This document shows positions 1,370 to 62,359 of a stretch of 64,000 nucleotides of DNA, piece after piece. The notes below the pieces were generated by a model. It was not told the origin of the DNA and did not search any database. It worked only from the letters and a program-made list of their open reading frames with translations. The DNA comes from Candidatus Micrarchaeia archaeon (GTDB taxonomy: Archaea; Micrarchaeota; Micrarchaeia; Burarchaeales; JAVZCV01): NCBI GenBank assembly GCA_038874215.1, contig JAVZCV010000001.1:6452-70451 (forward strand), given 5' to 3'. A program made the position numbers and the translations under genes. The stretch's first letter is position 1; every line of letters starts with the position of its first letter.

Positions 1370-1436
1370 ATCAACCCGCGATGGCGTTCATCAGATAACA
1401 CTTAAAATTCTTAGTAGTATAAAATAATAAAAAGCT

Positions 1437-1621
1437 GCCCTGATAGCTCAGTTGGTAGAGCGACTGGCTGTTAAACTTTGTAAAAAGTTTAACTAAAACG
1501 GGTACAGAAACCAGTAGGTCGGAGGTTCAAGATGAGGGCGGCGCTCTGCTCCTCCCTCATTCACCCAACCCCAAAATAAAGCTCTTGGCACGGTTGGGCT
1601 GTGAAAATCCTCCTCAGGGCG
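1437..1621 (+). tRNA. tRNA-Asn(GTT) with two introns: a canonical 37/38 intron of about 36 nt and a T-loop intron of about 76 nt
   Basis: Acceptor GCCCTGA pairs with TCAGGGC plus discriminator G. D-arm is GCTC-AGTTGGTA-GAGC. Anticodon stem ACTGG/CCAGT with loop CTGTTA|A (anticodon GTT), interrupted at 1474-1509. T-stem GGAGG (1521-1525) and CCTCC (1609-1613) flank TTCAA[intron 1531-1606]AT. No encoded CCA. Confidence 0.6.
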
Positions 1622-1628
1622 CTTTGAA

Positions 1629-2480
1629 TTAAAATGATTCGTGAGAGGACGCAGGGGTATTGTCCGAATACCCATCAAAGCCTTTGCTACTTTTTTGCGT
1701 ATTTATAAAGCCTTTCATCGCTTCCAGAACCTCTATTGGTATAAGGAACACTATCGTATTGCTTTGGTCAGCAGATACGTCGGCAAGAGTCTGCAAAGTC
1801 CTGAGATGAAGAGCGCCAGGCACCTGCGAGAGAGTCGTAGCTGCATCTGCGAGGTTCTGCGCTGCTGCTTTTTCGCCGCTACTAATTATTATGGTCGCAC
1901 GCCTCTCACGCTCGGCTTCTGCCTGTCTCGCCATAGCTCGTTTCATGTCTGCTGGAAGCTCAATGTCCTGCACTTTTATACCCGTGATATCAACGCCCCA
2001 TTCAGTTGTTTCTTTGTCAACAAGCATCTTAATTTCATTTGCAACTTCCTCGCGGTTTGATAGGATAACGTCAAGTTCTTTGTTTCCAATCACATCACGA
2101 AGCGCAGTTTGGGCATACATTGAAACCGAATTCTTGTAGTCCTGTATTTTGAGAATGGCTTTCTCCACATCCTCAACACGGAAGAAAACAACGCCATTCA
2201 CCATTACGGGTACATTGTCCTTAGTCATAACCTCTTGTTTGGGGATGTCAATAGACAGGATACGGGTGTCTATTTTGCGCATTTCCTGCAAAAAAGGTAT
2301 TATGAAATGCAGGCCTGGATCAGCAATTCTCTGAAACTTGCCCAGAGTAAATACGATGCCTTTTTCGTACTGCATCACAATCCGTACGAATAATGGGATG
2401 ACAATAGTAAGGACAAAGAGGACAAACGGCAAGATGCCACAACAGAGGGAATCAGAAAGCGAGAATATCATTATGATCAC
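1629..2480 (-). CDS. SPFH/band-7 (stomatin/prohibitin-like) membrane protein
   Basis: N-terminal transmembrane segment followed by an SPFH core (…VMVNGVVFFRVEDVEKAI… DITGIKVQDIELPADMKRAMARQAEAERERRA…). Confidence 0.8.
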   Translation of the reverse strand: MIIMIFSLSDSLCCGILPFVLFVLTIVIPLFVRIVMQYEKGIVFTLGKFQRIADPGLHFIIPFLQEMRKIDTRILSIDIPKQEVMTKDNVPVMVNGVVFFRVEDVEKAILKIQDYKNSVSMYAQTALRDVIGNKELDVILSNREEVANEIKMLVDKETTEWGVDITGIKVQDIELPADMKRAMARQAEAERERRATIIISSGEKAAAQNLADAATTLSQVPGALHLRTLQTLADVSADQSNTIVFLIPIEVLEAMKGFINTQKSSKGFDGYSDNTPASSHESF

Positions 2481-2522: not shown

Positions 2523-3341
2523 TTAGGAGTGATAGGATAACAGCTCTACAAGCCGTATAAAAACTCTCTCTGGGAGAACTCTGCGCATAAGTAGAAGGAG
2601 AGTCGTGTCGATGCCTACAGGATAGCGCAATCGCCAGTTTTTATCATTAGCCGCGCGAAATATCGTTTTTGCGACGTCGCGCGGGTGGGAGGAACCCCAC
2701 GTATACTTGCCTATTCGTTTAATTCTTTTTTCTAAAAGATTTTCGTATTGTGGTATGTTGCATTTTACAAAATCCATTGAGTTATGGAAGTTTGTTCTTG
2801 CCAGGCCCGGTTCTACTATTTTTACACGTATGTTAAATGGCTTCAATTCAAAGTAGAGGGATTCACTTAAACCCTCAACCGCCCATTTCGTGCTGTAGTA
2901 AAGGCTTAGGAAAGGCGCTACTGCCGCCATGCCGCCAACAGATGATACCATTATGATTGTGCCATCCCCTCGTTCTCTCATGCGGGGGATAACCTCGCGT
3001 GTAACCGCCATAAGCCCAAATAGGTTGGTTTCAAACTGTTTTCTTATCTGTTCTTCGGTTGCGGCTTCAAAAGGACCGAAAACAGCATAGCCCGCATTAT
3101 TTACTATTGTGTCTATCCTACCGTAGGTTTCTATTGTATATTTGACAGCATCCCGTATTGATTTCTTATCAGTAACGTCTAGGGGAATTATTTCTATGTT
3201 TGGCTTATTGTTAAGCCCATGGTCTCGGCTTTTAGGATTGCGCATCGTTGCGAGCACATTCCAGCCTTTTTCTGAAAAATAGAGAGCTGTTTCTCTTCCT
3301 ATTCCTGATGATGAGCCAGTAATCATAACTGTTTTTTTCAT
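2523..3341 (-). CDS. Short-chain dehydrogenase/reductase (SDR)
   Basis: TGSSSGIGRETA Rossmann motif and NNAG; length typical of a classical SDR. Confidence 0.8.
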   Translation of the reverse strand: MKKTVMITGSSSGIGRETALYFSEKGWNVLATMRNPKSRDHGLNNKPNIEIIPLDVTDKKSIRDAVKYTIETYGRIDTIVNNAGYAVFGPFEAATEEQIRKQFETNLFGLMAVTREVIPRMRERGDGTIIMVSSVGGMAAVAPFLSLYYSTKWAVEGLSESLYFELKPFNIRVKIVEPGLARTNFHNSMDFVKCNIPQYENLLEKRIKRIGKYTWGSSHPRDVAKTIFRAANDKNWRLRYPVGIDTTLLLLMRRVLPERVFIRLVELLSYHS

Positions 3342-3748: not shown

Positions 3749-4531
3749 GTGGTGTATTGCATGGATTCGCCGTTGAGAAAGTTTTCGGGTATAATATTGG
3801 ATCTGGATGGGGTAGTTTATCGCGGTAACACGCCCGTGAAGGGAGTGCCCGATGCAATAAACAAAGCGATTAGGGATGGTAAAGAGGTTTTTTTCTTAAC
3901 GAACTTATCGGCTCGCACAAGGCGCCAGTATGCAATAAAACTGCGACGCATGGGGGTAGAAGCAAGCGAGAATCAAATATACAGCTCTGCTTATGGAGCG
4001 GCATCTTATATAACTTCTATTAAGAGGAATCCAAGAGTTTTTGTTGTTGGGGAAGACGGATTGAAGAAAGAGCTTATGAAAGCAGGGGCGGTGATGTGCA
4101 AGGAGAAAACTGATTTTGTGGTAGTTGGGCTTGACAGAAAGCTGACTTATGAAAAGTTGAGGATTGCGATGGGGGAGATAAGGAGGGGAGCGCGTTTTGT
4201 GGCAACGAACACAGATCCGACTTACCCAATAGAGAATGGGCTGATACCCGGTGCGGGTGCGGTTGTTAGCGCTGTAGAAACCTGCGCAGGAATGAAGCCC
4301 GAGCTCATAGCGGGAAAACCCAACACGTTTTTGATTAACCTTATAATTAAGAAAAGCGGTCTGAAGAAGAGCGAATGCATTATGGTTGGGGATAGGATTG
4401 GGAGCGATGTGATTGCGGGAAAAAGGGCAGGTATCTCAACTATGCTCGTCTTTAGCGGAATTGACACAAGAGATGCTCTCCACAAATCCAAGATAAAACC
4501 CGATTATGTTGCTGAGAGAGTATACTATTGA
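3749..4531 (+). CDS. HAD-superfamily subfamily IIA hydrolase (NagD/PNPase-like)
   Basis: Motif I ILDLDGVVY, followed by a cap domain and the C-terminal motif GDRIGSDVIAGKRAG. Confidence 0.75.
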   Translation: MVYCMDSPLRKFSGIILDLDGVVYRGNTPVKGVPDAINKAIRDGKEVFFLTNLSARTRRQYAIKLRRMGVEASENQIYSSAYGAASYITSIKRNPRVFVVGEDGLKKELMKAGAVMCKEKTDFVVVGLDRKLTYEKLRIAMGEIRRGARFVATNTDPTYPIENGLIPGAGAVVSAVETCAGMKPELIAGKPNTFLINLIIKKSGLKKSECIMVGDRIGSDVIAGKRAGISTMLVFSGIDTRDALHKSKIKPDYVAERVYY

Positions 4532-7883: not shown

Positions 7884-8876
7884 TTATTTGATTATAACTA
7901 GGTCTTCGTAGCGGATTCCGTATTTTTCGCAATAAAAAGCTGGTTCAAGCGATATGGTATTCCCGCTTTTCAATATGTGCTTGCTATTTAGCCCCACATA
8001 GGGATACTCATGAACATCAAGCCCTATGCCGTGCCCCTGCGAATGTATCATCTTTTGCATCACCACCCCAACCACAGACGTATCAATGAAATTTGCAAGC
8101 GTGCGTGCCCGCATGTTTTTCTTAGAAAATTCTTTTGCGCGCTCAAATATCCCCTTGAGCTTTACGTACTGCTCTTTTTTTTCTCCACTTTCAAAAAAGA
8201 AGCAACGGGTTATGTCGGAGCAGTAGTCTTCGTATTTTATCCCTAAATCTACAAGAACCATTTTATCAATTTTCTTTTTGCTTGCTTCAGCGTGCGGAAA
8301 GCGGGAACGCTCGTCAGCCGCAATTATTGGCTCAAAGGCGGGCTCAAGTCCTTCTTCAATAAGCAGACGAAGCAGGTCTTTCCTAACTTCAAGCTCAGAC
8401 TTGCCTTTTTTTATGTCTATTTCATCCATTAGATTGCGGGCGATCTGATAGGCTTTTCTAATTTTTGAAATTTCTTCTTCTGTTTTAACCGCCCGCAGGG
8501 ACAGGAGCAAATCCGTTATGCTGCGGGTTTTTATTTTGAGCGAGTAAAGCATATGCAGCAATGAAGCCGTAGCGTAGGCCATGTTCAAGCCTACCTTTTT
8601 GCCTTTGAGTATTTCTTTGAGTAGCTTGGGGACATCGCCCCTTTTATCGTATATCCATATATCCGCAAGTGCTCCAATTCTTTCTTTAGCCTCCGCAAGA
8701 TTCATCCTGCTCACTATGACGCTTATGCTATTTTCGCAAAACAGGAATAGGGAGTTGCGCATGCTCACTCCAGAAAGGTATATTGTGTTCGGGTCGCAGT
8801 GATCGCCATTCTCAATAAGTATCACATCAATATCAGATGATGACAGTAGTGAGCGTATCTTAGTTATTTTGCTCAT
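7884..8876 (-). CDS. M24-family metallopeptidase (Xaa-Pro aminopeptidase/prolidase-like)
   Basis: GHGIGLDVHEYP and the 'pita-bread' metal-ligand pattern. Overlaps the smc stop by 4 nt, suggesting an operon. Confidence 0.8.
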   Translation of the reverse strand: MSKITKIRSLLSSSDIDVILIENGDHCDPNTIYLSGVSMRNSLFLFCENSISVIVSRMNLAEAKERIGALADIWIYDKRGDVPKLLKEILKGKKVGLNMAYATASLLHMLYSLKIKTRSITDLLLSLRAVKTEEEISKIRKAYQIARNLMDEIDIKKGKSELEVRKDLLRLLIEEGLEPAFEPIIAADERSRFPHAEASKKKIDKMVLVDLGIKYEDYCSDITRCFFFESGEKKEQYVKLKGIFERAKEFSKKNMRARTLANFIDTSVVGVVMQKMIHSQGHGIGLDVHEYPYVGLNSKHILKSGNTISLEPAFYCEKYGIRYEDLVIIK

Positions 8877-11800
8877 GTCAATTCCACGCCAACTGCCTTT
8901 GAACCGTCGGGCGTTTTTGTTATTCCTATGACTGAATCGGCAGAGGATAGAACGACGTCGTTGTGCGTTATAACAAGAAACTGCGCTGTCTTTGATAATT
9001 CTTTAATCAACTCGCTGAAACGCTTGCTGTTTTCCTTGTCAAGCGCAGCGTCAGACTCGTCAAGAATGTAGAAGGGGCTCGGCTTCTGCATTTGTATGGA
9101 AAAAATGAAAAGTAGCGCAAGAAGGGATTTTTCTCCTCCGGACATGCTATCAACGTTCTTCTCAACGCCATTCTCCTTCACTTTTATATGAAGACCGCCT
9201 TCAAACGGATTGCTTGGATTGTCAAGGTATAGGGTTGCTTCGCCATCAAACGCATGTGAATAAAGCCGCTTAAAGTTCTCGTTTATGCCTCTAAGCGTTT
9301 CCAAGAATATGTTTGTTTTCTTTCTGTCTATCTCTTCTATCATGCGCATGACTGCCCTTTTCTCTTCATCTAACTTCTCAACCCTCCCCTTTATCTCCTC
9401 AATCTCAGATTTCCGCTGCTCGTAAAGCTCTGGGGCTTTCATGTTAACATCACCAAGTGCAGCAAGTTCTGCCTGTAGTTTTCCGTGCATTTCTTCAAGC
9501 TCCTCCTTACTCAAATCAAGGGGAGTTATGTCCTTGAATTCCTCAAACTCTGCCTTTAAATCTGAAAGCTGCGTGTCTATGTTTTCCTTCTGAAGCTCTA
9601 TCCTGTACACCTCTTTTTGAACCTTGTCATGTCTCTGCTCTATCTCGCCTTTTTCACGAGCAACTTTTTCCAATTCCGCATCTATTCTATCCCGCTCTTC
9701 CCATAAACTCTCAAGCTCTGCGCTTACCTTCTTTAATTTCTTTGATTTTTCTTCAAGCAATTTGTTAGTTTCCTCAATCTGGCGTGTGAGCTCGTTTAGT
9801 TCTACTTCAATATGAGACGCTTCTGTTTTCTTTAAGCGGATTTCTTCTTCTTTCCCTACAATCTGGGTTTTAAGCATTTCCCACTCCTTCGCGATTCCTG
9901 CAAGCTTTGCTCTTAGCTCTGCTTCTTTTTTCTTCATCTCTGCGAGTTGGCTCTCGTCATGCCCACGCGCATCCTCTTCACCCGCGGATTCAAGGAGTTT
10001 CGCAAGAGAGGAGACTTCGTCTGAAACACGCTTTATTTCTGTTTCTTTCGCCGTTTTTTCAGCATGCTTTCCTGAGAGAATCTTTTTTATTTCAGCTATC
10101 TTCTTTTCTATGCTCTTTGCCTCTGCTTCTTGCTCGCTTATCCCCTTCATTGCAGTTTCAATTCTGCCTTTCATCTCCGCAAGTTCTATCTCCTTGTTCT
10201 TCAGCTCAACCTCTATCCTCGAAATCTCCTTTCGCTTGCCCGCCATCATTTCCCGCACTTTGTGAAGCTCTTTCTCAATTTTGTCCCTCTCAATCCGTGC
10301 ATTTTCAAGCTCTACTTCAATTCTCTTGGCTTCTTCTTTTACACGGAGCGCACTCGGGGATTTTGAATAGCCGCCGAACACAACACTGCTCTTTTCTATA
10401 AGTTCGCCATCCTTTGTGACCATCCTGTATTTTCCTGCATATTTTTTTGCTTCTTCAATACTCTCAAATAGGAGTGTATCACCAAAAACATAGTGGAAGA
10501 CTCGTTCAAGCTTCTTATCAAATTTTACAACGTCAAGCACTTTTCTGAAATGTGGTGGTGAATCCTCGGTATGCACTACGAGCTGCGCAATGGGTATGAA
10601 AGCACACCTTCCTGCCTTTTGCTTTTTAAGATACTCTATGACTTTTGTCGCTACGTCTATGTTCTCAACAACTACGTAATCAAGACGGGGACCTGCCGCA
10701 GCCTCTATCGCATCAGTGTAGGCTGCATCAAAAGTGCAAAGTTCGCCAACTGTTCCACATATGCCCTTTATCTGCCCATCATTTTTGAGTTTTAGCACCA
10801 CGTCCAATGCGCTGCTGCCCCTTCTCGGTAGGCTCACCAATTTTTCCCTTAAGCTCAATATTTTCTTGTCCAACTGCGGGAGTAGTTTGTTTTTTTCGCT
10901 CTCCAAGAGGAATAGGGCATCAATCTCTTCTGAAAGATTATTTTTCTTTTTTGTTAATTCAGAGATTTCTCTCTCAATCTCCGTTGTGTCAAATTTCCGC
11001 CTCTCCTGCAAGTTAAGTAGTAATTTTTTAAGTTCGTTTTCAAGTATCTGAATCTCGTTTTCGCTTCTGTATATTTCTGCGTCTATGGTGTGGAGATCTT
11101 TTTCAAGGCCCCGAAGTTCTTCGATCTTTCCGAGCCACTGCTCTCTCAGAAGTCTGCTTCTTTCGGCCTTTTTGCCCGCCTCCTGCATCAGCAGCCTGTT
11201 CTTCTCCTCTATTCCCGATATTCGGGAGAGAAGTTCTGAAAGCTCTTTTTCAACCGAATTCCTTTCTGAGACGAGGTCTGCAAGTGAGCGGTTGGCTACC
11301 GTGCAGGCTTCTTCAAGCTTTTTGATTTCAGAACCAAGGCGTACAAGGAGCGAGCGCCTCTCCAAGAGCTTCGTTTCGTTTATTTTTATTGCGGTTTTTA
11401 TATCCTCAACTTCTCTGCTGAGGTTATTTTTTTCTGTAAGCTCGTTTATTTTTGCTACTATGTCGTTTTTCTTTTTTGTTATATTCTCTATTTCGCGCGA
11501 TAGGCCTTCAAGCCTTTCTGAAAGCTCCTTCTCCTGCTGCTTCAGCTCTATGTGCTTTTTTGATATGTTTGTGTGTTCTTTGTCAACGTTCTTCATCTTC
11601 ATGTATATAAGAGAGCCCTTTACCCTACGAAGTTCGCCATTTATTTCTTGGTATCTTAGCGCGTCCGCTCTCTCTTTTTCAAGTTCGTTTAGCATTCCCT
11701 CCCTTTCACGCAAAATTATCTTGGCATCGTTTATATTCTGCTCAACCTTTGCGAGTTCGCCGAGCGCTTCTTTTTTCTTTTCTTCAAATTCAGATATGCC

Positions 11801-12256
11801 CGAGGCGCGCTCTAATACTTCCCTGCGTTCCTGTGGGTTCATCTCAACTATTCTCTGCACCTGCCCCTGCGCTATTATGTTGTGGTGGCCAGTTTCAAAA
11901 CCACACTTTCGCAGGAACTCTACTACTGAGGTGCGGGTTGTAGTCTTCCCATCCAATTTGTATTTTGTTTTACCATCCTTCCGTATGATTCGCCTTATCT
12001 CGTGGGTTCCATCGGTTTCAAGGACTATTGTTATCTCCGCCCTATCAGTTCCTTTGTATATAAGGTCAGAAATCCTGTTTGCCCTAAGTGCTTTTAGGCT
12101 GTTTTCTCCAAGGATGAATCTTATTCCATCGCAAACATTGCTTTTTCCGCTTCCGTTTGGACCTGCAACGCATACGAAGCCGTTGTTAAGGAGTATTTCG
12201 GTATTCCTAAAAGACTTGAAACCTCTGAATAGTATGCGATTTATGAACGCCACCAT
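8873..12256 (-). CDS. smc: SMC chromosome segregation ATPase
   Basis: N-terminal Walker A GPNGSGKSN, long coiled coils, a hinge (…GTVGELCTFDAAYTDAIEAAAG…), the C-terminal signature LSGGEKSL and Walker B ILDESDAALD. Length 1127 aa. Confidence 0.92.
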   Translation of the reverse strand: MVAFINRILFRGFKSFRNTEILLNNGFVCVAGPNGSGKSNVCDGIRFILGENSLKALRANRISDLIYKGTDRAEITIVLETDGTHEIRRIIRKDGKTKYKLDGKTTTRTSVVEFLRKCGFETGHHNIIAQGQVQRIVEMNPQERREVLERASGISEFEEKKKEALGELAKVEQNINDAKIILREREGMLNELEKERADALRYQEINGELRRVKGSLIYMKMKNVDKEHTNISKKHIELKQQEKELSERLEGLSREIENITKKKNDIVAKINELTEKNNLSREVEDIKTAIKINETKLLERRSLLVRLGSEIKKLEEACTVANRSLADLVSERNSVEKELSELLSRISGIEEKNRLLMQEAGKKAERSRLLREQWLGKIEELRGLEKDLHTIDAEIYRSENEIQILENELKKLLLNLQERRKFDTTEIEREISELTKKKNNLSEEIDALFLLESEKNKLLPQLDKKILSLREKLVSLPRRGSSALDVVLKLKNDGQIKGICGTVGELCTFDAAYTDAIEAAAGPRLDYVVVENIDVATKVIEYLKKQKAGRCAFIPIAQLVVHTEDSPPHFRKVLDVVKFDKKLERVFHYVFGDTLLFESIEEAKKYAGKYRMVTKDGELIEKSSVVFGGYSKSPSALRVKEEAKRIEVELENARIERDKIEKELHKVREMMAGKRKEISRIEVELKNKEIELAEMKGRIETAMKGISEQEAEAKSIEKKIAEIKKILSGKHAEKTAKETEIKRVSDEVSSLAKLLESAGEEDARGHDESQLAEMKKKEAELRAKLAGIAKEWEMLKTQIVGKEEEIRLKKTEASHIEVELNELTRQIEETNKLLEEKSKKLKKVSAELESLWEERDRIDAELEKVAREKGEIEQRHDKVQKEVYRIELQKENIDTQLSDLKAEFEEFKDITPLDLSKEELEEMHGKLQAELAALGDVNMKAPELYEQRKSEIEEIKGRVEKLDEEKRAVMRMIEEIDRKKTNIFLETLRGINENFKRLYSHAFDGEATLYLDNPSNPFEGGLHIKVKENGVEKNVDSMSGGEKSLLALLFIFSIQMQKPSPFYILDESDAALDKENSKRFSELIKELSKTAQFLVITHNDVVLSSADSVIGITKTPDGSKAVGVELT

Positions 12257-12325: not shown

Positions 12326-12988
12326 CTATTCAGGCTCAACCTGCGTGTAGATATACCCTGTTATAATATGTGCCGTCCCTGCATCGCATTTTGCCGCAGT
12401 TCCGTCATAATCGCTGTCGGTCTCACAATTCATGTATTCAAGGGATACACGTATCGTTTTGGCAGTACCGATAGAGGGTTGCGATTCGGTTGCCCCCAGA
12501 GTCATTAGCATGTCAACTCCCTCTCCTTGCTTTAGAAGAAAATTCCCGTCAAAAACACTATGGGATGGATCTTCCTGTTTTTTTATGGAGAACGTGCAAT
12601 CACCCAGTGTTGTTGCGCATCCTTCGTCAACACATGTGACGCAACTCGTACCATCGGCTTTGTGTATCGTTTTCCCTCTATTCGCCAAGTTTTCGGTTGT
12701 GATGTTTACTTTCGTTATTTTTATATCAAAGCCGAGACCGTTGTAGTTCATAAATCGTATGTTGTACTTCCCAGCGGATGTGTAGATTTTATAGCTCGAG
12801 CACTCAAAAGCAGGCATAAAAGAACATTGGCGCGGCATGTAGTTCTGAACATCAAAAATGCCTGTTGTATAAAGCACTACCATAACGGCCATAAGTGCGA
12901 CTATGGCCCAACCGTATGTAGTCAGATACTCAACTGCCATCTGTGCTTTTTTACCTGATCGTACTTGTATTCGGGACATTTGCCTCAT
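12326..12988 (-). CDS. Pilin-like protein with archaeal class-III (type-IV-prepilin-like) signal peptide
   Basis: N-terminus …GKKAQMAVEYLTTYGWAIVALMAVMVVLY matches the KAQxAxEYLxxYGWAI class-III motif. The remainder is Cys-containing and extracellular-like. Confidence 0.6.
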   Translation of the reverse strand: MRQMSRIQVRSGKKAQMAVEYLTTYGWAIVALMAVMVVLYTTGIFDVQNYMPRQCSFMPAFECSSYKIYTSAGKYNIRFMNYNGLGFDIKITKVNITTENLANRGKTIHKADGTSCVTCVDEGCATTLGDCTFSIKKQEDPSHSVFDGNFLLKQGEGVDMLMTLGATESQPSIGTAKTIRVSLEYMNCETDSDYDGTAAKCDAGTAHIITGYIYTQVEPE

Positions 12989-13025
12989 AAAATATCCACG
13001 CTGTATATTTAAATTCGTTCCTACT

Positions 13026-13574
13026 CTACTTTGCGCTACGCGTTATGGGTATTAGTAGTTCGGCGCTCGCAGTTTTTGATAGCCGGGTGTCCTTTTCAAT
13101 GTATCTAATATAAAATTTTCCCCGGTAGGATAGGCCTGGATTGCCGTAAGCTGGTACTCCGTCCTCAAAGCAACACTTCAATCTTTCGCCAGTCATGGGA
13201 TTGGTACGTATAACTGTCTTGTTTCCATGTTCAAGTACGATTCTTTTACCAGCAGGTAAATTAAGAACCCTGCATTTGTTATTATCTATGAGATTCCATC
13301 CAACAGACGGCCCAGGTGTCTCTATTCTTTCGGCGGTACACGCAAAATCTGTTATTTCTATTTTATGCCCTGTTTCTTGTCGTATTTCCAAACTTAGGTC
13401 GCCTTCCGTATTTATGGAATAGTCAAGACAAACAAACCCTTTTGAAAACTCACATTTAGAAGTTCCCCACGGGTTTGCTGTTTCTAGGTAGTACATGAGG
13501 GCAACTATAACTCCGATAACGAAAATTGCCCATCCGTATTTGTTTATATCTTCAATTATGGATTGGTCAATCAT
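13026..13574 (-). CDS. Possible pilin-like protein (divergent class-III signal)
   Basis: …INKYGWAIFVIGVIVALMYY hydrophobic N-terminus in line with the neighbouring pilin-like genes; weaker match. Confidence 0.4.
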   Translation of the reverse strand: MIDQSIIEDINKYGWAIFVIGVIVALMYYLETANPWGTSKCEFSKGFVCLDYSINTEGDLSLEIRQETGHKIEITDFACTAERIETPGPSVGWNLIDNNKCRVLNLPAGKRIVLEHGNKTVIRTNPMTGERLKCCFEDGVPAYGNPGLSYRGKFYIRYIEKDTRLSKTASAELLIPITRSAK

Positions 13575-13620
13575 CTATCCCCTATCTTTGTTCCACTATA
13601 AAAATATGCGCTTAGTAGTT

Positions 13621-14193
13621 CTATGGAACATCCAGTGTAGTGCTTATTTGTCCTATTGCGGCGCGTTTATTTCCGTCTTTATCTATATATTCTATGTAAA
13701 TCGTTCCTCTATAATGTTGCCCTAAATAACCTGAAACTGGTCTTTCTTCACCAGTCTCAAAATTGGTAGTGCAGCACTTAAGTTTTCTGCCGCTTTTGGT
13801 TCCGTCGGAAGTTATAATAATTTCTTCCCCTCTCCGCAATATGAGCCCGCCGCGTAAGCCACCTGTCCATTCGGTGTTCGTTATTCTGCACTCGGGCCTT
13901 ACTGAACCAAAATCAACAGTATCACGTAGGACGATATCCCTGCTTGTGCAGGCAACGTTCGTTATTGTGATTTGCTCGTGTGGAACTTGTGCAAATTTGA
14001 GTAACAGGTTGCCGTCAACATCAAGCTTGTAAGCAGTGCAGGAAAAGCCCTGCTGGAATATGCAAAAGCGGGGCGGGGATGGTGTAAAAACCCCCAGATA
14101 GAACATTACCCCAAAAACAAGTATTATTGCAAGAACCGCCCAGCTGTAAACAAGCAGATATTCCATTGCTGCTTGTGCTTTTTTATATTCCAT
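13621..14193 (-). CDS. Pilin-like protein with class-III signal peptide (start at the internal Met)
   Basis: MEYKKAQAAMEYLLVYSWAVLAIILVFGVMFYLGVF. Confidence 0.6.
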   Translation of the reverse strand: MEYKKAQAAMEYLLVYSWAVLAIILVFGVMFYLGVFTPSPPRFCIFQQGFSCTAYKLDVDGNLLLKFAQVPHEQITITNVACTSRDIVLRDTVDFGSVRPECRITNTEWTGGLRGGLILRRGEEIIITSDGTKSGRKLKCCTTNFETGEERPVSGYLGQHYRGTIYIEYIDKDGNKRAAIGQISTTLDVP

Positions 14194-14239
14194 ACTGAAA
14201 ACCCGGTAAAAATAAAAAAAGGAGAGAAAGAGGGGGGAT

Positions 14240-14785
14240 TTATGCTGGTTCAAGTTGTGCTGAGAGATCACCTATTGCTGCATGTGTGTAGCCCGTGTCT
14301 TTCTCAGCGTAGTAAACGTAGATCTTGCCCCTGTACCTGTCTCCAATACTACCCGATATTTCTGTCTCGGTAGCGCCTCTGCAGCATTTCAGTTTTGTTG
14401 TACCGTCTATTATCTCTGCATCCTGGCCGTTCTGTATATCTATACCAGGACTTAGCTCTGTCCATGTAAAAACGCAATCGGCGTCATCTACCTCATTATT
14501 CATATTGTCGTTCACTGTTGATAGCGTTTGGTCGGTACATGCGACCGCTCTTACAGTTATTGTTTTACCCGTCGCCTGTCCTATTTTAAGTGTTAGAGTG
14601 CCATCTGTTGCAAGCTTATACGCACTGCAACTTATGCCTGGTGTCTTGAACGTGCAGGCTATTGGCGCCTGCGGGTTAAAAACTCCGATATAGAACAGCA
14701 CGGCTACTACAATTACGATCACCAAAATAGCCCAGCCATAGGTCATCAGGTATTCCATGGCAGCTTGACCTTTTCTAAAGTCCAT
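14240..14785 (-). CDS. Pilin-like protein with class-III signal peptide
   Basis: MDFRKGQAAMEYLMTYGWAILVIVIVVAVLFYIGVFNP. Paralog of 39877..40428, sharing …KCC…GDxYRGKIYVYY…LxHxAIxxLS…. Confidence 0.65.
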   Translation of the reverse strand: MDFRKGQAAMEYLMTYGWAILVIVIVVAVLFYIGVFNPQAPIACTFKTPGISCSAYKLATDGTLTLKIGQATGKTITVRAVACTDQTLSTVNDNMNNEVDDADCVFTWTELSPGIDIQNGQDAEIIDGTTKLKCCRGATETEISGSIGDRYRGKIYVYYAEKDTGYTHAAIGDLSAQLEPA

Positions 14786-26864: not shown

Positions 26865-28163
26865 TCATATCGGCTTAACGTGCCCCCATTTATCAAGGGC
26901 GAGCCTTAGCTCATCATGATTCTTTGCGTATTCTTCCAAGCTTATGCCTGTGCTGTAGGCTTCTATTGCCTGCATGCATGCCTTCACGCCTGCTTCAACA
27001 CCTTTCGGATGCCCGAGCGTTCCGCCTCCCACCTGGATTACGATGTCAGTCGTGCCATATATGTTGAAAATTTCAGGTAGTATGCCTGGGTGGAGCCCGC
27101 CCGATGCAACGGGAAGCATGGGCTTTATTTTTCCCCATTTCTGGGGCATTCGCATATTTTCTATCTCGCCGACCTCTTTCTCGCATATCATCTCCTTTAT
27201 TGCGAGAATTTCGCTCTTTGCACCCTGGAGCTTGCCTATAACTGTCCCTATGTGAAGCTGATCTATTCCGATGAGGCGCATGAGCTTTGCAAGGAAAAGC
27301 ATGCTCATCCCATGCTCCTTTCTTGTGAACATCGCATGCATTGCCCTGTGCCCATGAATCGCCATGTCAAGGTCGTGCGCAAGCTCTGTTGCTGTTTGGA
27401 CGGCTGTGAAACCAGAAATAACAACATCAAGCATGAAATACCTGAATCCCGCATCATGCACTACTCGTATTCTTTTCTCAAGCTCTTTCAGATTTGGGGC
27501 AGTCACGTTTATGAATGCGTCCTTTATTTCTCCCGTCTCTCTTTCTGCCCTATCACGCATCCTCGCAAGTAACCTAACGCGCTCAGAAAGCCTGTTGAAA
27601 TTCTGGCTTGTAAGGTTTTCATCATCTTTGACGCAGTCAAAACCGCCTTTCCAAATTTCATAGGCAACTTCCGCATGCTCTCTTGCCGTGAAACCCACCT
27701 TGGGCTTTGGGACAACAGAGGTTATCGGCCCTTTTTTCTTTTTGAAAATTCTTCTTATCGCATCCCTCCCATAGTTCGGTCCTCTGAAATTCTTTATGTA
27801 TGTGAGGGGAAGCTCAGCGTCAAGAAGCTTTAAACTCGCAACGGCTTTCATGCCGAATATGTTTCCCCCTATTCCTGCTATGAGTTGCGGTATGCTGCCC
27901 TCTTCCCAGAGCGCAATCGGGTATGCGATTTTTACATAGTTTTTGTCATGCCAGTATGCATGTGCCTTGAGTTTTTCCATAAGCTTTGGCATGCGCGCCA
28001 GCGTTGTCCACGTGCCCGTTGAGCTTTCTGATGCGAGCCTGCCGACAACGTCATCAACAGAAATGCCATCAGACGGCTCAAAATAGAAAAGAGCTTTTAT
28101 TTCGTTGCTTTTTGGTGCGTATTTCCTATCAACAAACTCAGAGTACCATTCAAATTTATCCAA
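26865..28163 (-). CDS. rbcL: Ribulose-1,5-bisphosphate carboxylase large subunit, archaeal form III
   Basis: GGFDCVKDDENL (KDDE), GGLHPG, GGGTLGHP. Size and sequence match form III (about 430 aa). Confidence 0.85.
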   Translation of the reverse strand: MDKFEWYSEFVDRKYAPKSNEIKALFYFEPSDGISVDDVVGRLASESSTGTWTTLARMPKLMEKLKAHAYWHDKNYVKIAYPIALWEEGSIPQLIAGIGGNIFGMKAVASLKLLDAELPLTYIKNFRGPNYGRDAIRRIFKKKKGPITSVVPKPKVGFTAREHAEVAYEIWKGGFDCVKDDENLTSQNFNRLSERVRLLARMRDRAERETGEIKDAFINVTAPNLKELEKRIRVVHDAGFRYFMLDVVISGFTAVQTATELAHDLDMAIHGHRAMHAMFTRKEHGMSMLFLAKLMRLIGIDQLHIGTVIGKLQGAKSEILAIKEMICEKEVGEIENMRMPQKWGKIKPMLPVASGGLHPGILPEIFNIYGTTDIVIQVGGGTLGHPKGVEAGVKACMQAIEAYSTGISLEEYAKNHDELRLALDKWGHVKPI

Positions 28164-31186: not shown

Positions 31187-33340
31187 ATGAAGCGTATATT
31201 GTTTTTTTTACTATTGGCTTCCTTTTTATTGTCTTTTTCTCCAGCATACGCGAGGGCGGGCGGGGGTTGCTTTCTTCCAGATACGCTTATTCTTGCGGCA
31301 AATGGGACGCTGGTTCCGATAGGTAGTTTGAAAAGTGGGGATGTTCTTCTTGCATTTACCGAAAATGAGCAGATAGTTAATGTAAGCGTAGATGAAGCGT
31401 ACGGCATAGAGGTAGACGGGTATTACGTGATAGGTATAGAAAAAATAGAAGTGAAAGTTACGGGGGAACATCCATTCTACGTTGGAGATGGTAAATTCAA
31501 GGTGGCAGAGGAGATTGAAATCGGTGATTATGTTTTCGTTTTCAATGGAACAAGTCTTTCTCGGCAGATGGTTGTGGGAAAAAGAAAGGTGAATGAGAGC
31601 GGAGTTAAGGTATACAATTTGAGGACTGGCTGGCCGAACACATACTTTGCGAATTTTATTGCAGTGCATAATAAAGGGGGAGGAGGCGGGGGCGGTGGAG
31701 GGGGAGTTAGATCTTCATCTAGCAAGCACTACGAATCGCCATACAGAGAAGATACATACTGTGGAGCTGTAAAGACGTTTGAGCTGAAGAATGGGAGCAA
31801 GATAAACGGAAGCGAGTGCATCTACGTACATTACCACAAAACGCAAAGCCCACAGGCAACAAGGCTTTCAGACTGTGTTCGCACTAATTCAGATTCATGG
31901 AAGCAGTGCGAGAGTCTTGCGGGTTTCGCTTTGAGTCATGAATTGCAGTTTAGGTGTGCAAACGATGAGGAATGCGCGGGTCTGGATTATATTGAATTGA
32001 AGAATGGCATGCGTGTGAAGGTTATAAAGCCGCTAGTAACTTTTGACTGTTGTACTTGTTGCTGTGTTGGCATATTCTTTATGGCTTTTGGTTTGTTTTT
32101 TGTGGGCGGAATTGCAAATTCGGTCTTGTATGTTGTGAGTGGTGGGAGGTTGGGCTTCCGCCCATACCGCACTGGCGAAAATTTGGACTATTGCTACTCC
32201 CCTGCACAGATTGATGCGAAGGTAGCGAGAACGAAAAAGCTGCTTGATTACCTCGCGGGCATTGACAGAATGTGGGAACCAGAGCTTCTTAAAAAGACTG
32301 CAAGGGAGACTTTTACCAAAATGCAGAGATGCTGGGAGGCACGCGATTACTCGGAAATGCGGCCCCTCATGATGCCGTACCTGTATGCGCAACATGTAGC
32401 GCAGATAGAATCAATGAAGCGGAACCATGAGATAAACAAGCTTGAAGGGCTTGAAATTAGGAGAGTAGATATAGTGCATCTCAGGCATTATGCGAAGAAG
32501 AACCAGCAGGAATTCACGGCGCTTGTAGAAGCAAGCGTTCGGGACTATTATGTTGATGACAGAACGGGTGCATTTCTACGGGGAGACAAAGTTCCAGCAA
32601 CTTTTCAGGAGTTTTTGGTTTTCCAAAGGCAGGAGGATAGATGGCTTCTGAGGGAGATAAACCAGACCCGCGAGTCAGATGCGCTTAGGGCAGAGAATTT
32701 CGTTGAGGAACTTACGCCGCTGCAGCTCCAGAACATATATGGTTCTGCTGCGCAAAAGCCAACCGAAAAAGCCCCATGGTTAGATGATTCGCTCGCACAG
32801 AAGGGCGAAAAGGTACATAGAATGCTGAATTTCCTCTCAACAACAGACAAAAGCTGGGATGAGGATTTCATGAAGGAAAGCGCAAGAAGGATATTCGTTG
32901 AGGTTCTAAGCGCTTTTGAAAAACGGGATATTTCGGCTCTCGCGCCTTATCTTATGCCCGAGGCATTGGAGTTTTACAACGGGCAGATTGGAAAAATGAA
33001 GGAAGAAAACAGGACTATTGAATACAGAAACATGTGCGTGAGGAAGGTTGAGATAATCCTTGTAAAAAACTTTGCTGACAGCGATAAAGACGAGTTCACG
33101 TGCAGGATAAGTGCGCACGCACAGAAGATAGAGAGAAAGGGAGGCGTGGTAGTTCATAGGGACCCTGATGTCGTGCCTTTTGAGGAATATTTGACATTCC
33201 AGAAGCAAAAAGGCGAGTGGAAGCTTAGGGAAGTGCAACCGCCAGCACGAGCGCATGCAATGATAGTGGCGGAAAACGTGGATGAGGAGGTTTCAAAAGA
33301 ACAGGTGCAGTGGTATTACACAAAGGATAGAGCGCTCTGA
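31187..33340 (+). CDS. Secreted/membrane protein: signal peptide, Hint (intein/BIL-like) domain, poly-Gly linker, transmembrane segment, and two Tim44-like (NTF2-fold) domains
   Basis: Signal peptide MKRILFFLLLASFLLSFSPAYA. Hint block A CFLPDTLIL starts at 31268; block B is VTGEHPFYV; blocks F/G are VYNLRTGWPNTYFANFIAVHN ending at 31672, followed by KGGGGGGGGGG. A Cys-rich hydrophobic transmembrane stretch follows. Two repeats of a Tim44-like pattern then occur (…TFTKMQRCWEARDYSEMRPLMMPY…DRWLLREINQ and …VEVLSAFEKRDISALAPYLMPE…GEWKLREVQ). Confidence 0.6.
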   Translation: MKRILFFLLLASFLLSFSPAYARAGGGCFLPDTLILAANGTLVPIGSLKSGDVLLAFTENEQIVNVSVDEAYGIEVDGYYVIGIEKIEVKVTGEHPFYVGDGKFKVAEEIEIGDYVFVFNGTSLSRQMVVGKRKVNESGVKVYNLRTGWPNTYFANFIAVHNKGGGGGGGGGGVRSSSSKHYESPYREDTYCGAVKTFELKNGSKINGSECIYVHYHKTQSPQATRLSDCVRTNSDSWKQCESLAGFALSHELQFRCANDEECAGLDYIELKNGMRVKVIKPLVTFDCCTCCCVGIFFMAFGLFFVGGIANSVLYVVSGGRLGFRPYRTGENLDYCYSPAQIDAKVARTKKLLDYLAGIDRMWEPELLKKTARETFTKMQRCWEARDYSEMRPLMMPYLYAQHVAQIESMKRNHEINKLEGLEIRRVDIVHLRHYAKKNQQEFTALVEASVRDYYVDDRTGAFLRGDKVPATFQEFLVFQRQEDRWLLREINQTRESDALRAENFVEELTPLQLQNIYGSAAQKPTEKAPWLDDSLAQKGEKVHRMLNFLSTTDKSWDEDFMKESARRIFVEVLSAFEKRDISALAPYLMPEALEFYNGQIGKMKEENRTIEYRNMCVRKVEIILVKNFADSDKDEFTCRISAHAQKIERKGGVVVHRDPDVVPFEEYLTFQKQKGEWKLREVQPPARAHAMIVAENVDEEVSKEQVQWYYTKDRAL

Positions 33341-48824: not shown

Positions 48825-48943
48825 TGGACTCGCCGGGAATTGAACCCGGAGTCTCTGCCTTTTGCTAAACTTTTTTGAGCAGTTTTTGATCAACCCAAAA
48901 AAGTTTGTGCGAAGGCAGCGTCTTACCATTCGACTACGAGCCC
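48825..48943 (-). tRNA. tRNA-Ala(CGC) with a 47-nt intron at 37/38
   Basis: Minus-strand GGGCTCG…CGAGTCC+A acceptor carrying the G3:U70 Ala identity pair. Anticodon stem CTGCC/GGCAG with loop TTCGCA|A. T-arm CCGGG-TTCAATT-CCCGG. No encoded CCA. Confidence 0.6.
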
Positions 48944-53405: not shown

Positions 53406-53617
53406 TGAGCATAAGGATAAACATCGGAAATTTACGGTATGCGGATGTTGAGGAGATTGCAAGCGCATTCGGTGAAAACAAAAATATCTATATCAGAAAA
53501 GCGGGAGAGAATGTTGTCTTTGAGGTAGAGAAAGAGAGTGGGGTTTCTTCCAAATACGCCGAGGAGCTTGAACCTATCGAGTATATATCTGCAAGAAAAA
53601 CAAGAGAAGGAGAATAG
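53406..53617 (+). CDS. Hypothetical small protein (start uncertain; the alternative ATG at 53289 overlaps the fabG start codon)
   Basis: MSIRINIGNLRYADVEEIASAFGENKNIYIRKAGENVVFEVEKE…; no recognisable family. Confidence 0.25.
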
Positions 53618-54695
53618 AAACCGTCAGCGGGCAAGCCCTTCCCCCTTCCTTTTTGCCATCGCCCACCCCCCCATCAACACATTGATTGTTAACACAGCTC
53701 TTCCCTGAGGGGCATGGGGGGTTGTTGTAAGCGCAACCTTCTTTTAGGACGCAGATGTTGTTTATGCATTCTTCGTTTGAAGCGCACGGCGGATTATCGT
53801 AGGCACAGCCGTGCAGCCTAACGCAGATGTTGTTTATGCACTCGGAGCCATACGGACATGGGGGATTGCCGTAAGAGCAGCCTTCTTTTAGGACGCAGAT
53901 GTTGTTTATGCACGTGTGGTTCTCATCGCATGCAGGGCTGTTGTAGGCGCAACCCAAGTACTTCATGCAAGTGTTATTCTCGCAGTAGTGGTTTGGCGGG
54001 CATGGGGGGTTGTTGTAGGCGCATCCAACTTTTGCGATACACTCATTCAGCCTGCATGTTTCGTTTTCATTGCAGGGAGGATTCTTGTAGTAGCAACCCC
54101 TGTTCCCAACGTTTGATGCGTTGAAGGGAAATCCCTCGCTTATCACCCCACCTCTTACGATATCTATCAACTCCCTCAATGTCTGCTCTGTAAAAACACA
54201 CTTATTTGACCTCAGAATATTGCAGCAAACCTCTATTCGGAATTTGGGGGCTTTGCTTGCTACTGCACTCTCAAGCTGTTGTGAAAGCTGTTCCCTGCAT
54301 TCGTCCGCATTCACTATGTTGTTCGTTGGATCATGCGCATCTGCGTAGTAGGCTGATGCAACTGCGAGTGCAAACGCCTGCTCGCATCCGTGCTTCCCCT
54401 TTGCGATAAGCCTCCAATTTGCCCCTTCTTCCCATGCAGGGCAAGAAAGTGTCTGGCGGCAGTATTTTCCGTCTATCGCAGGGCAGCCTTGGAGCGCATC
54501 AACGCAGAAGCGCCTATGGGTATCGTTTAGCACAAAGTCGGGGTATGATGCGCCCTCGTCTATTCGTTCTTTGCATTCTGATGGGTAATATGTTAGGAGT
54601 ATTGACTCGGCGATATACTGTTTAGTTATAGGTCCGTATGCCGATGCGGCGTAAAAAAGCGAGAGAAGAAGCAAAAGCGCAAGAGAGTTTCTCAT
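53574..54695 (-). CDS. Secreted Cys-rich protein with about six tandem 24-aa repeats (GCAYNNPPCxxxxxCxNNxCV) and a C-terminal hydrophobic anchor
   Basis: Signal peptide MRNSLALLLLLSLFYAASA. Repeats are GCAYNNPPCPPNHYCENNTCMKYL, GCAYNSPACDENHTCINNICVLKE, GCSYGNPPCPYGSECINNICVRLH, GCAYDNPPCASNEECINNICVLKE and GCAYNNPPCPSGKSCVNNQCV. C-terminal LTVSILLLLFFLQI. Confidence 0.55.
   Translation of the reverse strand: MRNSLALLLLLSLFYAASAYGPITKQYIAESILLTYYPSECKERIDEGASYPDFVLNDTHRRFCVDALQGCPAIDGKYCRQTLSCPAWEEGANWRLIAKGKHGCEQAFALAVASAYYADAHDPTNNIVNADECREQLSQQLESAVASKAPKFRIEVCCNILRSNKCVFTEQTLRELIDIVRGGVISEGFPFNASNVGNRGCYYKNPPCNENETCRLNECIAKVGCAYNNPPCPPNHYCENNTCMKYLGCAYNSPACDENHTCINNICVLKEGCSYGNPPCPYGSECINNICVRLHGCAYDNPPCASNEECINNICVLKEGCAYNNPPCPSGKSCVNNQCVDGGVGDGKKEGGRACPLTVSILLLLFFLQIYTR
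53690..54130. repeat. About 72-nt periodic coding repeats (Cys-rich module) within 53574..54695
   Basis: Periodicity inferred from the protein-level repeats; boundaries approximate. Confidence 0.5.
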
Positions 54696-62229: not shown

Positions 62230-62268
62230 TTTTGCACCTATTAGATAATATGTGAAAGTTTTAAAAAG

Positions 62269-62359
62269 CGCCCCCACTGGGATTCGAACCCAGATTACAG
62301 GCTTGCTCCACTGTGAGAAATGCCGGAGGCCTGCGTCCTGTCCTTTGGACGATAGGGGC
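62269..62359 (-). tRNA. tRNA-Arg(CCG) with a 19-nt intron at 37/38
   Basis: Minus strand: acceptor GCCCCTA/TGGGGGC plus G; D-arm GTCC-AAAGGACA-GGAC; anticodon stem CAGGC/GCCTG with loop CTCCGG|A; T-arm CTGGG-TTCGAAT-CCCAG. Confidence 0.55.

Follow-up and report, generated by a model that had tools for sequence, protein, structure and literature searches.

The window analysed here, a 64,000-nt stretch of a Candidatus Micrarchaeia archaeon assembly (GCA_038874215.1, contig JAVZCV010000001.1, positions 6,452 to 70,451, forward strand), very probably carries at positions 1437-1621 (+) a functional tRNA-Asn(GUU) gene of the Micrarchaeia (DPANN) with two introns of the bulge-helix-bulge (BHB) type, one of 36 nt at position 37/38 and one of 76 nt in the T-loop at position 59/60. 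The two introns (1474-1509 and 1532-1607) split the gene into three exons, and the remainder after splicing is 73 nt in length.

Layout and identity of the tRNA-Asn gene

Exon 1 (1437..1473, + strand) reads GCCCTGA TA GCTC AGTTGGTA GAGC G ACTGG CTGTTA and contains the 5' strand of the acceptor stem (GCCCTGA), the D-arm, the 5' strand of the anticodon stem and the loop nucleotides C32 U33 G34 U35 U36 A37. Intron 1 (1474..1509, +; 36 nt, 28% GC) follows at the canonical position 37/38. Exon 2 (1510..1531, +; A CCAGT AGGTC GGAGG TTCAAG) provides A38, the 3' strand of the anticodon stem, the variable loop AGGTC, the T-stem 5' strand GGAGG and U54 to G59, and it is separated by intron 2 (1532..1607, +; 76 nt, 55% GC, with two internal hairpins) from exon 3 (1608..1621, +; T CCTCC TCAGGGC G), which supplies U60, the T-stem 3' strand, the acceptor 3' strand TCAGGGC and the discriminator G73. 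The gene does not encode CCA at its 3' end (1621). Upstream, the TATA-like sequence TTAAAATT can be read at 1402..1409 (+), that is, from −35 to −28 with respect to the mature 5' end, and in the relatives L116-L122 the tRNA-Asn is preceded by TTTAAATATT at about −34 to −25; we infer that TTAAAATT is a putative archaeal promoter element.

The assignment to asparagine follows from the GUU anticodon obtained with the 37/38 splice, the 5-nt variable loop AGGUC (class I) and G73 at position 1621, and the spliced sequence also has the conserved nucleotides U8, A14, G18G19, U33, U54U55C56 and A58. When both inserts were removed in silico, ARAGORN called a 74-base tRNA-Asn(gtt) with four perfect stems, which bears out the claim of an earlier note on this DNA that a two-intron tRNA-Asn with anticodon GTT lies at 1437-1621.

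Structure of the two intron junctions

The cut in a BHB motif falls after the second bulge nucleotide, and every canonical intron that we examined was consistent with this rule. The archaeal motif itself is defined as a 4-bp helix between two 3-nt bulges (PMC6379350), and this 3-4-3 geometry is observed at both introns of the tRNA-Asn gene (CUGU/ACAG with UAA and AAA; UUCA/UGAA with AGA and AAU). For intron 1, the central helix is formed by C32UGU35 (1468-1471) and ACAG (1504-1507), with 4/4 Watson-Crick pairs, and the bulges are UA|A (1472-1474), corresponding to U36 A37|A, and AA|A38 (1508-1510). The intron of about 36 nt that the earlier note had placed after position 37 is thus found at 1474-1509 with exactly that length and a BHB-compatible junction, and the Micrarchaeota homologues that were checked by hand keep the 37/38 register (L012, CTGT/GCAG; L038, CTGT/ACAG). 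The BHB conformer of intron 1 has a predicted energy of -8.0 kcal/mol versus -11.8 kcal/mol for the minimum free energy (MFE) fold, which is better by 3.8 kcal/mol and consists of a 10-bp hairpin (GUUAAACUUU/AAAGUUUAAC) in which the anticodon and the 5' site are buried. A weak ACUU/GGGU helix in the place of h' can be drawn by hand from the sequence of intron 1, and no fold returned it.

For intron 2, the central helix pairs U54UCA57 (1526-1529) with UGAA (1602-1605), again with 4/4 Watson-Crick pairs; the 5' bulge is A58 G59|A (1530-1532) and the 3' bulge is AA|U60 (1606-1608), after which the T-stem begins directly. The interior of the intron folds into two hairpins, UGAGGG (1533-1538) with CCCUCA (1554-1559), and 1562-1574 with about 1581-1601. 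The unconstrained MFE fold of 1521-1613 (-37.0 kcal/mol, z = -3.45) already contains the T-stem, the U54UCA57/UGAA helix and the AAU bulge, and forcing both 3-nt bulges open gave -34.5 kcal/mol, at a cost of 2.5 kcal/mol. Because of the U54UCA57/UGAA helix and the AA|U60 bulge, intron 2 is assigned to 59/60, the T-arm equivalent of 37/38.

The outer helix h is perfect at both introns (the anticodon stem and the T-stem, respectively), and the place of the classical h' is taken in each case by an intron hairpin next to the 5' cut site, which sits at a three-way junction. Both motifs thus belong to the relaxed hBH-like class, for which an endonuclease of broad specificity is required (PMC6379350). 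Motifs of the BHB type can thus form at both junctions when these are folded, as the earlier note had anticipated for a genuine two-intron gene.

Compensatory changes in the exons

When metagenomes were scanned with exon 1 and two degenerate positions were permitted, eight contigs were returned, seven of which carry an intronless tRNA-Asn while the remaining one (L118) has the 37/38 intron only. Exon 1 is identical to the intronless genes (L119 and others) at 36/37 positions, and over the whole tRNA the window gene matches the intronless L119 at 67/73 positions, differing at positions 5, 50, 51, 63, 64 and 68. All six differences resolve into three compensatory pairs, namely 5:68 (C-G to U-A), 50:64 (U-A to G-C) and 51:63 (C-G to A-U). 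Pairs 50:64 and 51:63 bridge the 76-nt insert and pair 5:68 bridges the whole gene; exon 2 differs from L119 at positions 50 and 51 alone, exon 3 compensates both, and the exons contain no stem mismatch. Since the six exon differences all form compensatory pairs that span the introns, the cloverleaf is under selection.

The covariation was measured on an alignment of 14 tRNA-Asn sequences that were intronless or spliced in silico; spliced sequences were used because MAFFT misplaced the 3' exons when unspliced genes were aligned. Across these 14 sequences, 99.3% of the cells of the cloverleaf are paired and 11 pairs have changed on both sides. The covariation score was 0.49, compared with 0.15 ± 0.02 for shuffles, none of which (0/500) reached 0.49, and slid controls in which the partners were moved by 1-3 columns scored at most 0.115. 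The match of the spliced sequence to a cloverleaf is far beyond chance, and together the compensatory pairs and the covariation over 14 homologues indicate a constrained tRNA, not a relic.

Introns at 59/60 in other archaeal tRNAs

A genome scan for tRNA-Asn 5' halves with an anticodon-loop intron returned 109 loci, about 50 of them archaeal tRNA-Asn genes. T-loop candidates were chosen from these loci because the stretch from the variable loop to the 3' acceptor strand was too long, a selection that is blind to the helix. Ten loci, including the window, had such an overlong stretch, and in six of the ten the insertion lies at exactly 59/60. These six are L046 from Nitrososphaera (TTCGAG|...CGAAAA|T, 17 nt), L095 from Brockarchaeota (14 nt), L069 from Thermoplasmata (helix TTCA/TGGA, 11 nt), L077 from Thermoplasmatota (TTCAAG|A...TGAAAA|T, 14 nt), L063 from Aenigmatarchaeota (32 nt) and the window gene from Micrarchaeia (TTCAAG|A...TGAAAA|T, 76 nt). 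In all six, TTCR is paired with YGRA, which is followed by NN|T, and A57-U covaries with G57-C. The combination of a 37/38 and a 59/60 intron is thus a recurrent tRNA-Asn layout in at least five phylum-level lineages.

The other five genes share with the window gene the two insertion sites, the helix of 54-57 with YGRA and the NN|U60 bulge, and the T-loop junction sequences of L077 are identical to those of the window. In contrast, their T-loop introns are 11-32 nt long, unstructured and without similarity to the window intron sequence; since the lineages are unrelated and the intron sequences are not similar, the T-loop introns were probably gained independently. A separate motif scan found three more tRNAs with 59/60 introns (L030, a second one in L063, of 37 nt, and a second one in L077). 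In L063 (−, about 4297-4530; Aenigmatarchaeota), it is the tRNA next after the two-intron tRNA-Asn that has the 37-nt 59/60 intron, with the junction TTCAAA|...TGAAAA|T. No T-loop intron was present in nine Micrarchaeota tRNA-Asn loci (0/9), and a search of the window for other hidden tRNAs, with a T-arm either intact or split at 59/60, found none.

The earlier note had described a T-loop intron of about 76 nt between TTCAA and AT, which corresponds to a cut at 58/59 (TTCAA|...GAAA|AT); the 59/60 register reads TTCAAG|...GAAAA|T. The length is 76 nt either way and stands, while the BHB geometry moves the site to 59/60 (1532-1607). We consider it unlikely that both introns are real and the T-loop is nonetheless cut at 58/59 (or at the sequence-equivalent 57/58 or 56/57), so that the mature T-loop would read UUCAAAU. 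Owing to the runs of A at the two junctions, that register does leave a legal 7-nt T-loop, UUCAAAU is the T-loop of the relatives L118, L121 and L122, and the junction around the 5' site is relaxed and not a classical bulge. However, cleavage at the 3' site would follow the first bulge nucleotide and not the second, beside a perfect h-B-H; the other tRNA-Asn T-loop introns fit 59/60 with NN|T60 in 5/5 cases; UUCAAGU is likewise the T-loop of relatives (L023, L116, L119 and L120); and the ARMAN-2 T-loop intron that was cleaved experimentally is at 59/60. The T-loop intron is therefore best placed at 59/60, one nucleotide 3' of 58/59, with the mature T-loop UUCAAGU.

Origin and possible activity of intron 2

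Intron 2 has a GC content of 55% versus 45% for the window, and its 76 nt exceed the 11-37 nt of the other 59/60 introns seen here 2-7 fold. The tRNA-Asn genes of the closest relatives have no T-loop intron, and one or both introns are absent from them. Since these near-identical relative genes are intronless, intron turnover in the clade is recent. Searches for further copies of the two introns were negative in the window (with up to 3 mismatches allowed), in 125 loci (blastn-short) and in viral contigs, and the exact T-loop junction, with a gap of 50-80 nt, had 0 matches in a metagenome scan. We also found no orthologue with the same two introns, so the comparative support described above applies to the exons and not to the introns themselves. 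We regard it as quite improbable that intron 2 was acquired recently as an autonomous element, either a mobile BHB intron that spreads in this Micrarchaeia lineage or a stable circular RNA that functions once excised.

Highly doubtful as well is the related idea that intron 2 is not passive, but becomes a stable, probably circular, structured small RNA after excision, or that its minus strand is the terminator of the neighbouring SPFH gene. Its 76 nt, its 55% GC in a window of 45% GC and its two stable hairpins would suit such a role, as would intron ends with a loose similarity to box C (AAGAUGA) and box D (GUGA), and a minus-strand loop, TTTATTTT (1573-1580), some 50 nt beyond the stop codon of the SPFH gene (1629-1631). 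Against this, Rfam at E<=10 over 1300-1800 gives a partial tRNA match alone, internal C'/D' boxes at the archaeal 12-nt spacing are absent (by eye), the D-like GA is taken up by the BHB helix, and there is no conserved copy in any collection searched. An intron that hosts a C/D box sRNA is known from euryarchaeal tRNA-Trp, which resembles intron 2 in being long and structured with C-like and D-like sequences near its ends; unlike it, intron 2 has imperfect boxes, lacks C'/D' at the proper spacing and sits in the T-loop and not at 37/38. A C/D box sRNA in intron 2 was accordingly rejected as a candidate, as AAGAUGA and GUGA have one mismatch each and both the internal boxes and an Rfam match are absent. 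Separately, we note that TTTATTTT, in the loop of the second hairpin of intron 2 on the minus strand, could be an oligo-T terminator of the SPFH gene.

It is very improbable that the locus is a dead gene, in which an intact or single-intron tRNA-Asn was broken by a 76-nt T-loop insertion and is no longer spliced while another copy does the work. The absence of the T-loop intron from the closest relatives, the size of the insert and its lack of a homologue in the collections searched are what such a history would leave behind. However, a random insertion would not supply UGAA and then AA exactly 5' of U60, the exons have acquired three compensatory pair changes with no stem mismatch, and the promoter-like element is kept at the distance seen in relatives.

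Detection by gene finders

On the unspliced DNA of 1437-1621, ARAGORN called nothing in any intron mode tried, and the Rfam tRNA model at its gathering score missed the gene as well, reporting two other tRNAs in the window and only these; with permissive thresholds it gave a partial tRNA match of 13.4 bits at 1442-1520. The statement of the earlier note that standard gene finders miss this gene therefore holds as far as ARAGORN and Rfam are concerned, the two for which it was shown. The same note called the open reading frame 1493..1678 spurious, and we agree, judging from the overlap of this 61-aa minus-strand frame with the 3' end of the SPFH gene and from its TTG start.

With the T-loop insert removed, ARAGORN itself proposed a tRNA-Ser(AGA) with an intron at 33/34, which is almost certainly an intron-placement artefact, since tRNA-Ser belongs to class II, in which the variable arm is long, whereas the variable loop here is 5 nt, a BHB is absent at 33/34, all homologues carry CTGTTAA in the loop with identical flanks, and the discriminator G73 and the GUU anticodon suit Asn. 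The case shows that ARAGORN mis-assigns anticodons where archaeal introns are placed without a check for the BHB motif.

Proposed splicing of the precursor

The spliced cloverleaf and the motif geometry suggest the following pathway, in which we infer the transcription of the gene, the identity of the enzyme and the exact cut sites. The tRNA-Asn precursor would be transcribed from the A/T-rich promoter upstream. At each intron, the four exon nucleotides 3' of the stem (32-35 and 54-57, respectively) would pair with the four intron nucleotides before the last two intron bases, and this pairing would create a 4-bp helix between 3-nt single-stranded segments at each boundary. A broad-specificity endonuclease, expected to be of the ε2 type as in Ca. 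Micrarchaeum, would then cut after the second nucleotide of each segment, at the four sites A37|A and A|A38, and G59|A and A|U60. An RtcB-type ligase would join the three exons into a 73-nt tRNA with the T-loop UUCAAGU and would probably circularise the excised introns. Relaxed motifs are described as being cut only by (αβ)2 and ε2 enzymes (PMC6379350; PMC5829648). No Pfam match to tRNA_int_endo or RtcB was found in any of the window's 53 open reading frames of at least 100 aa (53/53), and the orphan frame at 53574-54695 (373 aa) had no PDB match, 4FZ2 included.

The closest known system is ARMAN-2 (Ca. Micrarchaeum acidiphilum), in which 56% of the tRNA genes are disrupted (Fujishima et al. 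2011, PMC3239211). Its pre-tRNA-Cys(GCA) has a 13-nt 59/60 intron with a relaxed hBH motif that was cleaved in vitro by the ε2 three-unit endonuclease, and its tRNA-Pro(GGG) has two T-loop introns, at 53/54 and 59/60 (PMC3239211). ARMAN-2 and the window thus share the phylum-level lineage, the 59/60 site, a relaxed hBH-type motif and a multi-intron tRNA; they differ in the tRNA species concerned, in the size of the intron (13 nt versus 76 nt with two hairpins) and in the combination of 37/38 with 59/60 that is seen in the window. Thermoproteales tRNAs have up to three BHB introns at non-canonical sites and a broad-specificity endonuclease, and their intron gain is recent and lineage-specific (Sugahara et al. 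2008 and Fujishima et al. 2010, summarised in PMC4033280). They resemble the window in having multi-intron tRNAs with non-canonical sites, whereas they are crenarchaeal, use an (αβ)2 EndA and carry related introns that recur in several tRNAs (transposition), with no second copy of either intron being found here in the window or in 125 loci.

Host lineage and neighbouring gene

An SPFH/slipin gene (1629-2471) on the opposite strand ends 7 nt from the tRNA-Asn gene, so that the two are convergent. The protein that it encodes matches MEM3399211.1 ('MAG: slipin family protein [Candidatus Micrarchaeia archaeon]'), from a contig of 161,995 bp, at 100% identity, the next-best matches (75-62% identity) are from Anstonellales, Bilamarchaeaceae and Micrarchaeota, and the NCBI taxonomy places Micrarchaeia in Nanobdellati (DPANN). 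The earlier note had proposed the multi-intron tRNA as a lineage marker, with DPANN among the candidate lineages. The SPFH matches support the DPANN placement; the marker itself is weak, because the closest relatives lack one or both introns and the combination of 37/38 and 59/60 recurs in unrelated phyla. No orthologous tRNA-Asn was found beside the SPFH homologues P0002, P0003, P0004, P0006 and P0007, where there are other tRNAs or none. As a side observation, in some relatives the SPFH orthologue is followed by a different tRNA, Ala-CGC in L123 (1403-1597) and L125 (916-1094) and Gln-CTG in L001 (5793-5953).

Other features of the window and its relatives

Two further tRNA genes of the window also carry introns. 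At 62268-62359 (−), ARAGORN calls a tRNA-Gly(TCC), while U33 numbering and the BHB rule give a tRNA-Arg(CCG) with a 19-nt 37/38 intron, a C32UCC35/GGAG helix that is 4/4 paired, a CA|A38 bulge and a discriminator G; the intron in the Gly(TCC) call was placed without a motif check, the same error as in Ser(AGA). At 48825-48943 (−), there is a 119-nt tRNA-Ala(CGC) with G3:U70 and a 46-nt 37/38 intron, which Rfam scores at 57 bits and ARAGORN misses; its 3-4-3 spacing and a long h' are perfect, and its central helix UUCG/AGCA is 2/4 paired. As the Asn, Arg(CCG) and Ala(CGC) genes are all intron-bearing, 3/3 tRNA genes of the window have introns.

In L117 (about 839-1030), L100 (−, about 1014-1130) and L045 (+, about 2900-3150), the last ~14-21 nt of tRNA-Asn are repeated about 70-160 nt downstream. 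The repeated part comprises the 3' part of the T-arm and the acceptor strand, and these repeats look like att-site duplications from integrated elements. Immediately 3' of the tRNA, L023, L117 and L120 have the conserved sequence ATTT(T)ACGACGGRAG... in common.

Three protein-coding regions of the window were also noted. In a 717-aa protein (31187-33340, +), a Hint/PT-HINT domain at the N-terminus is joined to two Tim44-like domains, which is an unusual architecture for an archaeal protein. An SMC gene (8873-12256) is followed immediately downstream by four consecutive open reading frames of 181-220 aa without a Pfam match (12326-14785, −), which may be a paralogous family. A RuBisCO large-subunit homologue of 432 aa (26865-28163, −; Pfam RuBisCO_large, 2.2e-82) is present in this DPANN genome and is presumably of form III, the nucleotide-salvage type.

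Significance

Introns at 59/60 and multi-intron tRNA layouts are already documented in this lineage, so that the present gene is an annotation catch that will not surprise specialists; what stands out as unusual is the length of its T-loop intron and the absence of that intron from the closest relatives. For annotation, the value of the gene is that without it the metagenome-assembled genome would seem to lack a tRNA-Asn, or to hold a spurious 61-aa open reading frame in its place. The gene extends the ARMAN-2 observation of heavily disrupted tRNA genes, for instance at 59/60, to another Micrarchaeia lineage, and it exemplifies how introns were recently gained or lost between tRNA genes that are almost identical.
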